Source of the DNA: an uncultured Thermoleophilia bacterium
Lineage (GTDB): Bacteria > Actinomycetota > Thermoleophilia > UBA2241
Assembly (NCBI GenBank): GCA_963715985.1
Contig: CAVQSP010000011.1
Location: 224,001-288,000 of the forward strand
Reading direction: 5' to 3'
DNA: 64,000 bases
Position numbers and translations under genes: made by a program. The first letter of the stretch is position 1. Every line of letters begins with the position of its first letter. This document shows, one piece after another, positions 52,588 through 58,698 of the stretch. Under the pieces are notes generated by a model that searched no databases, was not told the DNA's origin, and saw only the letters and a list, made by a program, of their open reading frames with translations.

Positions 52588-53166
52588 TCACTGGAAGTAC
52601 GTCTGGCCGGCCTGCAGGCTGCCGGTGGTGATCGTGAGATCGTCGCCCGAGATGCTGCGCTTGAGCGGGATCGGGTTGCAGCCGCCGGTGACGACGTTGA
52701 TCTGGTCGCTGGGGAAGACCTTGCCGCAGTTGTTGCACTGCATGGCGTCTCCCTGCTGCTGGTAGCCCTTCTTCTGCGGGTAGCACACCTCGCAGGCGTC
52801 CAGCGCCGCGCGGATCTTGCCGTCCTTGCTGGCCAGCACGAAGTACTTCACCGTGGTGCCGTTGACGTCGTACGTGTAGAAGTGCGCCTTGCCGTCGCTG
52901 ACCTCGGCGACGGGGATGGTCACATCACCGCCGGCCGGAGCGGTGGTCGCCGTCGCAGTCTCGGCGCCGACGCGCCCGTTGATGACGACGACGGCCACGA
53001 TCGCAACGACGGCGAGGGCCGCCACGGCGAGAGCGATGTGCAGACCGGTGCGCCGCTTAGGCGTCTCGAACTGGGCCCGCTTCTCCTGGCGCCTCTGCTC
53101 GGCGCCGGCCTGCGCGCGGGCCTGGGTCTTGGTCGCCTGCCTGCGCTGCTGCCTCGACTTGCTCAC
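52588..53166 (-). CDS. DUF2318 (predicted Fe-S/metal-binding) membrane-anchored protein
   Basis: TM helix; DACEVC, CNNCG, GGCNPIP; AGGAGG RBS before GTG. Confidence 0.85.
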   Translation of the reverse strand: MSKSRQQRRQATKTQARAQAGAEQRRQEKRAQFETPKRRTGLHIALAVAALAVVAIVAVVVINGRVGAETATATTAPAGGDVTIPVAEVSDGKAHFYTYDVNGTTVKYFVLASKDGKIRAALDACEVCYPQKKGYQQQGDAMQCNNCGKVFPSDQINVVTGGCNPIPLKRSISGDDLTITTGSLQAGQTYFQ

Positions 53167-53243
53167 CTGCCGTACCTCCTTCTCCCGTCCGGGCGTGCCC
53201 GGCCGCTGTGACCATCGGTGCGAACGATGGTAGAAGGCCGAGA

Positions 53244-53259
53244 TGAAGAAGCTGTGTAG
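53244..53259. promoter_or_regulatory. Putative OmpR-family direct-repeat site upstream of the DUF2318 operon
   Basis: TGAAGAAGCTGTGTAG; 13/16 match to the site at 58774. Confidence 0.45.
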
Positions 53260-53357
53260 ACGGCCGGGGCAAGCTGGCGCCGTGCTCGTCGAGCGTCGAT
53301 ACTGGGGCCTGGCGCAGGCCTGTGGAAGGCGTCTGCGGGGACGACCGGGAGACGACG

Positions 53358-54320
53358 ATGGCACGAGTGGCGGTGGAGATCCTGCACACGCCCGGCTGTG
53401 GCAGCCGGCAGGCCGCGCGCGACCGCGTCGAGGCCGTGGCGCGGCGGGAGGGCGTGCCAATCGCGCTCACCGAGCGCGAGATCAGCACGCCCGAGGAGGC
53501 GCGCGAGCAGAGCTTCCCCGGCTCGCCGACCATCCGCGTCGAGGGCCGGGATGTGGAGCCCGGCGCCGAGGGTCAGGAAGACTTCGGTCTGGGCTGACGG
53601 CGCTACTCCGGCCCCGGTGGATCCGGCGGCGTACCTGCCGAAGACCTCGTGCGCGACGCGCTGTTGGCAGCGACCCGCGTCGCCCGCCAACCGGAGCAGT
53701 GGGCGGCGGCGTTCGCTGCCCGTGCCGACCGCTACGGCCGCGAGCCGAGCGCGCCGGCGCTCGCGGCCGCCGAGGCGTTTCGCAGCGCCGGCGTCCGGGA
53801 CGTCCTGGAGCTGGGCGCCGGGCAGGGGCGCGACACGATGTATTTCGCGCGCTCCGGCTTCAGCGTCCACGCCCTCGACTTCGCGGCCGAGGGCGTCGCG
53901 GCCATCCGCGCGAGGGCCGCGCGGGAAGGGCTCTCCGGCCGGGTGACGGCCGCGCGACACGACTGTCGTGACCGCCTGCCGCTGGCGGACGGGAGCGTCG
54001 ACGCCTGCTTCTCCCACATGCTCCTGTGCATGGCGCTCTCGACGTCCCAGCTCGAGGTGCTGAGCGCCGAGGTGCGCCGGGTGCTGCGTCCCGGCGGCCT
54101 TCACGTGTACACGGCGCGCTCGACCGCCGACCCCGACTACGGCGAAGGGGCTGCGTGCGGCGACGACAGGTACGAGTCCAGCGGGTTCGTGGTGCACTTC
54201 TTCAGCCGCGAGCTCGTGGACCGGCTGGCTCGCGGCTTCGACCTCGTCGACGTCACCGAGCTCGAGGAGGGCGACCTGCCGCGACGGCTGTACCGCGTAA
54301 CGATGCGGCGAGGCGCATGA
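53358..54320 (+). CDS. Putative selenoprotein: thioredoxin-like DF/DUF2703-type domain (UGA=Sec80) fused to class I SAM methyltransferase
   Basis: PGC...FPGSPTIRVEGRD...FGLG-TGA-RRY at the family's conserved CRxY position; frame stays open into ELGAGQGRD methyltransferase; hairpin right after the TGA. Confidence 0.75.
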
Positions 54321-54336
54321 CGGCGGGAGCGAGCGC

Positions 54337-55120
54337 CTACAGGCTCGTCAGCTGCTCCGCCGCGCGCTTGCCGGAGTCCGTGGCGGGATCGATGTCCACC
54401 GCCTGCTGGAACGCGACCTTGGCCTGGCTCAGCAGGTCGGCGCTCTTCGCGGCGTCGCCACTGTCCTTCGCGTCGCTCGCCGCCGTCTTGAGGAAGATGC
54501 CCCTGTTCAGATGCGCCGTCTGGAAGTCGGGGCTCTTCTCGAGGACGGCATCGATCTGCTTGAGCGCCTTGCCCGTCTGCCCGGAGTAGAAGAGCGCGAC
54601 CGAGTAGTCGGTGCCCACGTTGGGGTCGCCGGGCTGCTTCTTCCAGGCGGCCCCGTACACCTTCGCCGCGGCCGTGAAGGCCTCCGTCCCGCCGGCGTTG
54701 TCGTTCTTGTCGAACGCGGCGCTGCCCTGATCGTAGAGACCGTTGGCGCGGGCGACGAGTGCCGTGTAGCTGCCGGACGTGTCGGCCGTGATGGGCACGG
54801 CGGCCGGCGTCGCGGTACCGCCAGCGGGACTGCCGCCGCCACTGCCGACGACGACGATCACGAGCACCACCACGACGGCGAGCGCGGCGAAGCCCAGCCA
54901 GATCCAGAGCAGGGAGCGCGACCCGCCGGATGTCGCCGGCTCTCCGCGCCTCTCGGCCGCGCGCCGGGCCGTGCGCGGCCGCTGCTGCCTGGACGGGCGC
55001 CGGCGCAGCCGCCTTCGCGGTGCGGCCACGACCGGCGTTCTTCACCGCGGTCAGGTCGCTCCCGCACTCGGGACAGTACTTCGCGTCGGCGGCGTCGTGG
55101 CCGCACTCGGGACAGTACAC
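54337..55120 (-). CDS. Double zinc-ribbon / TM / TPR protein (frameshift near 54950-55010)
   Basis: YCPECG...YCPECG N-terminus; TM helix and TPR-like repeats in a second frame. Confidence 0.7.
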
Positions 55121-56278: not shown

Positions 56279-57833
56279 TCAGTCGATCTCCCAGACGCCG
56301 AGCATGCCGATGTCTTCGTGCTCGACGATGTGGCAGTGGAACATGGCCGTGCCACGCCAGTCGCTCACCTTGACGAGCTGGGTGACGCTCCCGCCGCGCG
56401 GCACGATCACGGTGTCCTTCCAGGCCGGGGCCTGCGTGTACAGCGCCGCGTAGCCGGCATGGCCGCCGCCGATCGACAGCACCTGGGCATGATTGGTGTG
56501 CTGGTGCCAGGGGTGGTCCATGCCGGTCGGGTTGTCGATGGTCCACACCTCCCAGACATCGCCGGAGGCGGGCAACTGAGAGCGCACGACCAGCGGGTCG
56601 ACGTCAAAATCGCGACCGTTGATGGAGCCGCGCCCCATCATGCCCATGCCGAGCACGAAGCGGCGGCTCACGGCGGCGTCCAAGCCAGGCTTGGCGCGCT
56701 GCGCCGCGGGGTCGATAGACGAGGGCAGCGCCTGGACCGTCTTGCGTCCCGTGACGCGGAGCGTCATGCAGGGTCGCCTGCGGCGTCGTGCCGCCGCCCA
56801 TCATCCCGCCCATCATCCCGCCCATCATGCCACCGCGTGAGTAGGGCAGGGTGCGAAGGCGGTAGGCGCCCGGCGACGTCGACACCTTGACGAGGAGGTC
56901 GGCGCGCTCGCCCGGAGCCAGCAGGAGCTCGGCGACCCGATAGGGTCTGTCGAGGAGTCCGCCGTCGCTGCCGATCACGGCGAGCGAGTGCCCGTCCAGT
57001 GCAACGCGATAGAAGCGCGCGGTGCTCGCGTTGAGCAGGCGCCAGCGCTGGACGGCGCCGGGCCGTGCGGCGAGCTCGGGCGCGACCTGGCCGTTGAGCG
57101 TGACCAGGGCGCCCTCCTTGCCCAGCAAGTAGTCCATGGCCGAGGTGTAGGGTGCGGGGCGGCCGTCGACGATCGTGAAGTCCTTGCAGGACGAGCACGT
57201 GCGTCTCGAAGCTGCTCAGCGCGTCCGTTGGGTCCTCGACCACCAGCGGCCCGGCAAGACCGCCCCAGAGCTGCTCGGCGACGAGGCCGTGCACGTGCGG
57301 GTGATACCACCCCAAGGGCCGGCGGGCTGCCGGCCGAGGTCGTAGGTGTAGGTCCAGCTCTCGCCGGGGTCCAGGCGCCGCATCACGTTGTCTGCTGGGT
57401 CAGCCGGCGAGACGTGCCAGCCGTGCGTATGGAGGTTGGTGGCTCCCCGCTGCTCTCCGAGCGGGTTGACGCCGCCGCCGGTGAGCCCGTTGCGCACGTG
57501 GAGGCGCAGCGTCTCGCCGCTGCGTACGCGCACCAACGGGCCGGGCACCTGGCCGTTGTAGGCGAGCATCCGCGCCGTCGAACCGCCGAGACGCACATCG
57601 GTCTCGGCCACGGCGAGGCTTCCCTCGCGCGTGCCGGCCACCGTGGTCAGCACCAGCTCGTCGAAGTCGGCCAAGGGCGCGCCGCGAGGCACCGCGCCCA
57701 GCGCCGCCTCTGCCTGCGCCGCGTCCGCGGCGTTCTTCGCGAGCCCCGAGATGGTCAGCGCACCGCCGACCGCGCCCAGAGCACCGATCTTCAGCAGGTC
57801 ACGCCTGGTGATGCCGTGTGCGCCAGCCCTCAT
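56279..57833 (-). CDS. Tat-exported multicopper oxidase (three frameshifts near 57312, 57187, 56766)
   Basis: TRRDLLK Tat signal; HTHG, WYHPH, HPWHQH and HCHIVEHEDIGM copper motifs; Met-rich GGMMGG loop. Confidence 0.85.
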
Positions 57834-57837
57834 CTCG

Positions 57838-58698
57838 TCACCAGCCGAAGCCGCCCCACATGCCGCCGAGGCCCATCCAGCCGCCGGTCGCGGCACGCAT
57901 CATGGAGGCGCTCGCGGGCAGGTGGTGGTGCTGGTAGAAGTGCTTGACCTGGCTGCGCTGGTGCGCAGTCAGGGTCTTCAGCGCGGCCTGCGCCGCAGCG
58001 GTGTTGGGGCTGGGACCGTACCGCTGCATCCAGCCGTTCGCGGCACTCACTTGGCGGCTGCGCAGGGCGAGCCACTGGCCCATGCCGGCGCGGTGACTCG
58101 TCATCCAGGAGGCGCCGAAGCCCGAGCCCCACATGTGACTGGCGTCCCAGAAGCCGCCGTTCATCATGTCGCCCATCTGCCAGCCGTGCCACATCCCCAT
58201 CGCGGGGACGGTCCAGTCGGTGCCGCCCGCATACTGTCCCATGAAGCTCTGCATGTCGTTCCAGTGCTCAGTCCAGAGGTCGTGCAAGGCCTGCTGCGCC
58301 TGCGCCGAGGTGAGATCGACCTTGTGGGTGTCGTACCAGGTGTGCATCGCCACCAGGTGCTCGGTGCGCAGCTGCAGCCATGCCTGCATGGCCGACGGAT
58401 GGTCGGCGAGCCAGGTCATGCCGGAGTCCGTCATGCCCCACATACCGGTGCCGCCCCAGGGGCCGGTGCCGTCCCAGGTACCGCCCATCATGGTGCCGGG
58501 GCCCATCATCGTGCCGGGGTCGGTGGTGCCGGGCGTGGCGCCGCCCATCATGGTGCTGGGATCGGCCTGCATGCCGGGGACGGGGGCCCCGCCGCCCATC
58601 ATGGTGCCGGAGTCGGCGGCGGCGATCGGGACCATCAGGGCCGTGGAGAACGCGGCGACCGCGAGGGTGGTGAGGAGGACCTTCGGCCTCAGCTTCAT
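57838..58698 (-). CDS. Secreted Met/Gly/Trp/His-rich protein
   Basis: Signal peptide; TMMG repeats; two related helical repeats. Confidence 0.75.
   Translation of the reverse strand: MKLRPKVLLTTLAVAAFSTALMVPIAAADSGTMMGGGAPVPGMQADPSTMMGGATPGTTDPGTMMGPGTMMGGTWDGTGPWGGTGMWGMTDSGMTWLADHPSAMQAWLQLRTEHLVAMHTWYDTHKVDLTSAQAQQALHDLWTEHWNDMQSFMGQYAGGTDWTVPAMGMWHGWQMGDMMNGGFWDASHMWGSGFGASWMTSHRAGMGQWLALRSRQVSAANGWMQRYGPSPNTAAAQAALKTLTAHQRSQVKHFYQHHHLPASASMMRAATGGWMGLGGMWGGFGW

Follow-up and report, generated by a model that had tools for sequence, protein, structure and literature searches.

Two kinds of selenoprotein that have already been described come close to the gene considered here. The family named 'hypothetical protein DF' (NF049942) was reported with deep-Sep (Xiao & Zhang 2025, PMC12013277) and had a single selenocysteine (Sec)-containing member, from Desulfosediminicola flagellatus; according to the accessible portion of that paper, no TGA-containing homologues occurred in other Sec users and the protein had no recognised domain. 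In the part of a 2026 review available to us (PMC13188914), DF fills one row of a table beside MduS and other methyltransferase selenoproteins, and the same table, after Haft & Tolstoy 2025, gives MduS a CxxU motif and two Sec residues. The gene analysed here occupies positions 53358-54320 (forward strand) of a 64,000-nucleotide stretch of DNA, hereafter the window, from an uncultured Thermoleophilia bacterium (GTDB UBA2241; assembly GCA_963715985.1, contig CAVQSP010000011.1, positions 224,001 to 288,000). We read 53358-54320 as one gene for a 320-residue selenoprotein, in which a DF domain is joined to an S-adenosylmethionine (SAM)-dependent methyltransferase and which would be made by read-through of an in-frame UGA, and assign this reading a probability of roughly 0.8. 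On the comparative evidence, it is a real and conserved selenoprotein gene that combines two known kinds, and it is both widespread and systematically mis-annotated.

The window protein resembles the DF family in matching NF049942 from end to end and in placing Sec at the family's Cys/Sec position. As published, however, and as far as the accessible text goes, the family has one Sec member, whereas we find Sec forms at 25 loci or more in a different lineage, one of high G+C content: a class-wide search gave a DF match in 178 of 401 genomes, and among the matches listed at least 25 contain one or two TGAs. Compared with that published description, the forms found here also differ in that some carry two Sec codons, in the fusion to a methyltransferase and in a thioredoxin fold that can be assigned; the DF selenoprotein family is thereby enlarged beyond its single published Sec member and gains both a fold and a methyltransferase partner. 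With MduS, the protein shares a homologous methyltransferase joined to a Cys/Sec redox domain, but it lacks the C-terminal third of MduS, which is AhpD-like as judged by overlap with P0146. Its Sec domain is of a different fold and N-terminal, so that the UGA precedes the entire catalytic domain. The same design, a SAM methyltransferase with a thiol/selenol domain, underlies the ArsM/AhpD (NF041537) and ArsM/DUF2284 (NF041536) models, although the window enzyme is not an ArsM. Our literature searches found no description of a DF-methyltransferase fusion; Haft & Tolstoy 2025 or the deep-Sep supplements may mention such fusions.

Two open reading frames (ORFs), 53322-53597 and 53649-54320, share a forward frame that only one TGA (53595-53597; FGLG-TGA-RRY) interrupts, a layout for which the earlier note had both the coordinates and the frame right. 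Read as one open frame, the gene has 320 codons, one of them the Sec codon, and ends at a TGA stop (54318-54320). The ATG at 53358 is likely to be the start codon, because a Shine-Dalgarno-like GGGAGA (53347-53352) stands 5 nt ahead of it and orthologues begin at the equivalent ATG behind GAGGAG-type motifs. For a UGA that is read through, the predicted product has a mass of about 35 kDa and the predicted junction peptide is ...DFGLG-U-RRYSGPGGSGGVPAEDLVR. That the locus specifies one 320-residue product, as the earlier note had proposed, is borne out by the single frame, by full-length single-TGA orthologues and by uninterrupted fusions with Cys. The AlphaFold2 (AF2) model of the whole protein is of high quality (predicted local distance difference test 95.1, predicted template modelling score 0.90, the latter a hint that the two domains may dock), and residues 71-90, the loop that holds Sec80, form its sole softer stretch.

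Comparison with related genomes makes it almost certain that the internal TGA encodes selenocysteine (Sec80). A fusion with a TGA in the same column was found in 15 of the 89 genomes of the window's family, all 15 belonging to the window's genus; nine are full-length single-TGA fusions with 57-64% identity, three are partial but in one frame, and the remaining three have the two parts in overlapping different frames. No Cys version of the fusion was found in the genus among these 89 genomes. A draw of 41 genomes yielded five with a full-length fusion and exactly one TGA, and all 16 Sec genes extracted share the TGA column (GLG-U-R-x-Y). Where homologues are uninterrupted, Cys takes this place, as the earlier note had expected: the fusions P0071, P0073 and P0123 (315-323 aa), which have the same domain composition, carry Cys at the TGA column, as do stand-alone DF proteins and the six uninterrupted fusions among 14 Streptomyces, Streptantibioticus and Mycobacterium loci. 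At another seven of these 14 loci, DF and methyltransferase are adjacent separate genes, and the last is degenerate; in the seven split loci, DF is ended by TAG or TAA after the complete domain and not at the Cys column. In the family alignment A3, Cys stands at the residue-80 column in 24 of 30 rows, that is, in every row not read through. The frame is maintained past the TGA, including across a 7-codon in-frame indel, and the 30 codons that lead from the TGA to the methyltransferase are conserved in frame. The uncorrected ratio of nonsynonymous to synonymous differences (pN/pS) is 0.53 after the TGA, close to that of the methyltransferase (0.48).

The earlier note had tied its reading to the presence of selA, selB, selC and selD, and the genome does possess the machinery: selD, selA and selB stand in a row (C13:101879-106968), all above curated cut-offs, and a tRNA-Sec with anticodon tca is found at C13:139538 (ARAGORN call tRNA-SeC). 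The selD gene (C13:101879-102703), directly upstream of selA and selB, itself has an in-frame TGA (...AAKSG-U-AAKLG...) and is thus a selenoprotein gene in its own right. The same genome has another DF gene, a stand-alone paralogue (C11:613580-613846, reverse strand); it too contains an in-frame TGA (...GSMG-U-RRY...), after which comes a small hairpin of its own. With EF-Tu from this genome, the best matches were about 75-78% identical and came from several phyla, most of them from metagenome-assembled genomes of Actinomycetota. Four stand-alone DF genes of congeners (L028, L029, L085, L086) have two in-frame TGAs, one at the Cys14 position (HTPG-U-GRW) and one in the Sec80 column, which suggests that they are double-selenocysteine forms.

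The N-terminal DF-family domain (residues 1 to about 105; 53358-53672) is delimited by NF049942, by a profile match to Mj0307, by Foldseek and by the AF2 model. When the UGA is read through, residues 6-101 align with positions 1-96 of the 96 in NF049942 ('DF family (seleno)protein') at 96.8 bits (cut-off 70), whereas the 79-aa product that ends at the TGA aligns with positions 1-73 only, at 75.8 bits. The last 23 model positions thus align only with read-through, and about 21 bits of the DF family signal lie beyond the TGA; the earlier claim that the residues after the TGA complete a thioredoxin-like domain agrees with this. A profile built from 30 family members matches the thioredoxin Mj0307 (1fo5) with E = 8e-7, and Foldseek with the domain model returns only thioredoxins among its top matches (probability 1.00, with weak E-values of about 3e-3). 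The order of elements in the model, beta-alpha-beta-alpha-beta-beta-alpha, is that of the thioredoxin fold. DF shares this fold and the position of the first active-site Cys with Mj0307 (1fo5), Mt0807 (1nho) and DUF2703, although the Pfam match of the N-domain to DUF2703 is weak and sub-threshold. Cys14 (codon TGT, 53397-53399), the equivalent of the first Cys in the thioredoxin CxxC, is matched in the alignment to the first C of the 1fo5 motif CPHC, and the second Cys is missing: instead of a classical CxxC active site, the window protein has G-C-G-S-R and other members have C-P-x-x. Unlike the archaeal thioredoxins, DF bears its other Cys/Sec on a segment of some 20 residues, inserted between the final strand and the final helix and absent from 1fo5. 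Judged by these profiles and the model, the N-domain is a thioredoxin fold that retains a nucleophilic first Cys (Cys14) and carries Cys/Sec80 on an inserted loop. Cys14 and C/U80 are invariant in 30 of 30 family sequences, as are F53, G55, S56, P57, G63, D65, R81 and G88, and the signature motifs of DF (the GC motif, F-x-G-S-P and Cys/Sec-R-x-Y) are all present.

A hairpin follows the TGA, as the earlier note had claimed, but its conserved register differs from the stem drawn there. The conserved pairing, GGCCCCGG / CCGG-C-GGC (53611-53617 with 53623-53630), starts 14 nt after the TGA and gives a 7-bp stem from which the single base C 53627 bulges out and which is capped by the loop UGGAU (53618-53622). 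With numbering that starts at the U of the UGA, the pairs are G17-C36, C18-G35, C19-G34, C20-G32, C21-G31, G22-C30 and G23-C29, with position 33 bulged; the element spans +17 to +36, and its loop reads (U/A)GGAU, which places a GG in the loop. Across 16 sequences (15 fusion genes and one stand-alone relative), 112 of 112 cells are paired, with five pairs invariant and two varying only from G-C to G-U. The hairpin encodes G-P-G-G-S-G-G, a segment absent from the Cys forms. Among the nine full-length orthologues, we compared third positions of fully conserved four-fold-degenerate codons: these are invariant at 4 of 6 sites inside the hairpin and at 8 of 77 outside it (Fisher p = 0.003, a value overstated by the relatedness of the sequences), and inside it only the bulge and the first base of the loop vary. 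Stand-alone Sec forms have another hairpin, CCGCCG-GGUC-CGGCGG, at the same distance from the UGA. We consider that the element at 53611-53630 is likely, but no more than likely, to be a bacterial selenocysteine insertion sequence (SECIS); its support is comparative and not energetic. In L024-L026 and L027, the loop of the putative SECIS reads GGAGGA and an in-frame GTG lies 9 nt further on; in these loci the hairpin could double as the ribosome-binding site of an internal start.

The C-terminal part (residues 111-320; 53688-54317) was recognised by Pfam, NF045649 and Foldseek as a class I SAM-dependent methyltransferase domain of the MduS clade. Residues 110-319 match positions 6-215 of the 338 in the MduS model NF045649 with 242.3 bits (E = 7e-72), below its cut-off of 380; model positions 216-338, the Sec-bearing C-terminal third, have no counterpart, the gene ending at 54320. 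Pfam matches are to Methyltransf_25, Methyltransf_11 and TehB (29.8 bits against a threshold of 20.4), and the best Foldseek matches are 2p8j, METTL6 and TehB (23-25% identity). The earlier designation of the domain as TehB-like therefore holds in the loose sense of fold and Pfam domain (2xva, 2i6g, 4dq0; PF03848), but it fails at the TehB equivalog cut-offs (34.4 against 219.5 bits for TIGR00477, 32.8 against 218 for PRK11207), and TehB itself lacks a thioredoxin-like or Sec domain. The scores against ArsM are likewise low (26.7 bits for NF008823, cut-off 263; 18.8 for NF041537, cut-off 510). From profile scores and modelled fold, the C-domain belongs with the small-molecule class I SAM methyltransferases and falls in the MduS clade; its likeness to TehB is a loose one, and it is a member of neither the MduS nor the TehB family. 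Elsewhere, the clade is fused to AhpD-like (true MduS, P0146), DUF2284 (P0128), rhodanese-like (P0127) and TSCPD (P0156) domains; two of these partners, AhpD and DUF2284, recur in the names of the curated models for ArsM fusion selenoproteins.

The databases hold this gene largely in fragments. Among the best 120 database clusters, 36 have their first residue precisely at the (M/V/L)-P-S-D-E-L-L helix that comes after the hairpin, and eight start slightly further on; all 44 look as if they were calls of this Sec gene that miss its 5' part. NCBI is among the sources of P0051, one of the 36. Three of the 120 are uninterrupted, one of these three with a deleted DF core. In P0011 (266 aa), the first 35 or so DF residues, including the Cys, are joined directly to the methyltransferase and the remainder of DF is deleted. 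When the Cys-type fusion P0073 was looked up in an atlas, all clusters returned were generic methyltransferases of the TehB type, 200-227 aa long, and none was fused. The reading proposed here would correct a systematic annotation error, in which a widespread selenoprotein is recorded as a 5'-truncated "SAM-dependent methyltransferase" and an orphan ORF of 79-91 aa. The earlier note had called the selenoprotein hidden, which is too strong a word for its parts, since the NCBIfam DF model is curated and MduS-type methyltransferase selenoproteins are in print.

Several observations pull the other way as regards read-through. Evolution is fast in the stretch of the DF domain that precedes the TGA, with an uncorrected pN/pS of 0.86. 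For the 66 nt that follow the TGA, the folding energy is -20.8 kcal/mol, a stability no greater than that of shuffled sequences (z = +1.63; 197 of 200 shuffles are at least as stable), and folding of the single sequence was discarded on this ground as an argument for a SECIS. No compensatory double changes occur among the 16 hairpins, and covariation therefore shows compatibility only; the Sec-form hairpins are modestly more stable than the corresponding region of the Cys forms (-13.3 against -10.2 kcal/mol; 24 Sec rows against 9 Cys rows, the 9 found among 32 loci, with 2 duplicates, all sequences being related). Finally, three congeners have a GTG at codon 92 preceded by GGAGGA, from which a separate methyltransferase could start. 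An Rfam search of 53000-54500 gave no match. Promoter and terminator scans found none, with a consensus ill-suited to the G+C content here. No RNA runs are listed among the sequencing runs that contain the stretch.

The gene callers' reading is that of two genes: the TGA would be a true stop, leaving a truncated 79-aa DF, and the methyltransferase would be translated from the GTG at 53649-53651, where P0002, 95% identical to the window's methyltransferase, begins. DF and methyltransferase are indeed genuinely separate genes in Streptomyces; these split genes, however, stop with TAG or TAA behind a complete DF domain, whereas the 79-aa product would lack both the last 23 family-model positions and the invariant Cys/Sec, and the 30 codons after the TGA are conserved in frame. 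The earlier note had likewise allowed for separate translation from GTG 53649, but orthologues do not keep a start at this position: in frame, a start is first met at codon 120 in L023, within the conserved core of the methyltransferase, and at codon 92 in L024-L026. The GTG is probably just Val98, within the last helix of the DF domain, and we hold two genes to be very unlikely. Still less credit is due to an assembly or sequencing error (a true TGC or TGT) or a recent pseudogene, for which the draft state of the assembly and a multicopper oxidase gene split over three frames 2 kb away could be adduced. Fifteen of the 89 related genomes have a TGA in the same column, in copies about 60% identical, and with it goes a conserved hairpin that Cys forms lack; because the TGA is conserved across related genomes, sequencing error is excluded, and the explanation as a whole has a negligible chance. 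The earlier note had also allowed that reads might show TGC. Contigs from sequencing runs cover the stretch in short pieces only, two of which span the TGA; a metagenome contig from another sequencing run is identical to the window over 53580-53763, spanning the TGA, although this is weak evidence, as the contig may derive from the source sample. A second contig spans 53403-53621, and among its differences listed none falls at the TGA (16 further differences are unlisted).

Decoding of UGA as Sec competes with release factor 2. Partial Sec insertion could accordingly give a dual output, with the fusion, a 79-aa peptide and a free methyltransferase made in a ratio set by selenium, a variant that is compatible with the selenoprotein reading. 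GTG 53649 in the window and, in the three congeners, GGAGGA-N9-GTG at codon 92 inside the loop of the putative SECIS would offer the internal start; a start codon common to all orthologues was not found, and we regard this variant as improbable, if clearly less so than two independent genes.

If the UGA is read as Sec, translation would begin at ATG 53358, SelB and Sec-tRNA(Sec), directed by the hairpin at 53611-53630, would decode the UGA at 53595-53597, and the ribosome would proceed through the last helix of the N-domain into the SAM methyltransferase. With the Sec codon ahead of the entire catalytic domain, less full-length enzyme should be made under selenium shortage, which would render production of the enzyme, besides its activity, selenium-dependent. 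In the finished protein, the Cys14/Sec80 pair may capture and/or reduce a soft species of a chalcogen or metalloid, for instance Se, Te, As or a persulfide, and present the captured species to the fused methyltransferase, where it would be methylated with SAM. We give this sequence of capture or reduction and methylation somewhat less than an even chance. The detoxification of metalloids by reduction and methylation that the earlier note had proposed, and the selenium dependence of the methyltransferase, are likewise inferred. Lineages that are far apart show DF together with the MduS-clade methyltransferase, as a fusion or as neighbouring genes. This linkage, the other thiol/selenol fusions of the clade and the order of ArsR/SmtB and DF genes point to a thiol/selenol module that works with the methyltransferase. 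At 11 of 39 loci (for example L043, L047 and L057), the gene immediately ahead of a stand-alone DF gene encodes an ArsR/SmtB regulator, and in nine stand-alone DF loci a CBS-domain gene then follows DF. Genes for DUF2703 thioredoxin-fold proteins occur in arsenic-induced ars clusters of Rhodococcus, according to the accessible part of that report (PMC6514093); the link to arsenic is weak, because DF is only a sub-threshold relative of DUF2703.

The catalytic domain of ArsM has conserved cysteines that bind As(III). Among 56 members of the clade, no invariant or nearly invariant Cys was found in the methyltransferase domain, and the As(III)-binding cysteines of ArsM are thus missing from the window's methyltransferase. 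Together with scores far under the ArsM and TehB equivalog cut-offs, with neighbours that vary by lineage (PF01053, FeoB, DUF2164/cupin, CDF, ZIP/HxlR, encapsulin) and with the lack of any ars, mer or tellurite gene adjoining the window's copy, this tells against a chalcogen or metalloid substrate. The gene model could be right and the function another one, with DF a redox switch or protective module for methylation of an organic substrate, or with a role in sulfur/selenium amino-acid metabolism. Such a function would suit the absence of an invariant Cys, the natural-product and small-molecule methyltransferases among the top fold matches (Ecm18, DnrK, MitM and Htm), the encapsulin gene that follows the fusion in two Streptomyces loci and the PF01053 Cys/Met-metabolism pyridoxal-phosphate enzyme encoded directly downstream, on the same strand, in 6 of 15 Sec-fusion loci (L024-L026, L091-L093). 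The PF01053-bearing loci all come from one subclade, and the window's copy has no such neighbour. It sits less easily with the ArsR/SmtB regulators ahead of stand-alone DF genes, with the metal transporters (CDF, ZIP, FeoB) that recur near the fusions, with the multicopper oxidase in the window and with the AhpD-like and DUF2284 partners of the clade, which are those fused to true ArsM in curated selenoprotein families. We find another function unlikely on balance, though a real contender.

Chalcogen or metalloid methylation by the DF fusion could be one case of something broader, which we put forward as a speculation with less behind it than either proposal above. The MduS clade would be made up of general carrier-coupled methyltransferases, whose inorganic chalcogen or metalloid is bound covalently by a thiol on one side and a selenol on the other (Cys14-S-X-Se-Sec80 in the present protein), both carried by a dedicated DF, AhpD-like, DUF2284, rhodanese or TSCPD partner, and the DF fusion would be the core of a new selenium-dependent route of methylation and volatilisation, widespread in high-G+C bacteria of soils and wetlands and distinct from ArsM and TehB. 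One methyltransferase clade that has repeatedly been joined to Cys/Sec domains is in any case a possible lead to new chalcogen and metalloid methylation chemistry in these habitats.

The window gene lies between a divergent FtrD-like/FtsX-MacB/ABC-ATPase operon and a convergent TPR gene that is met 17 nt past its stop; flanked in this way, it looks monocistronic. Gene neighbourhood was rejected as a guide to function, there being no universally conserved partner. In the two Streptomyces loci mentioned above (L097:4460-5968 and L100:4240-5769), the gene that follows the Cys-type fusion on the same strand encodes a family-2 encapsulin shell (SrpI-like, with a cyclic nucleotide-binding domain). 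Further along the window, on the reverse strand, the multicopper oxidase (56279-57896) is spread over three ORFs in different frames (Cu-oxidase_3, Cu-oxidase and Cu-oxidase_2), which would represent either a frameshifted pseudogene or assembly indels. Adjoining it (57838-58698, reverse strand) is a gene for a secreted-looking 286-aa protein with M-M-G-G and M/W/H-rich repeats and no Pfam match, which may be copper-binding.

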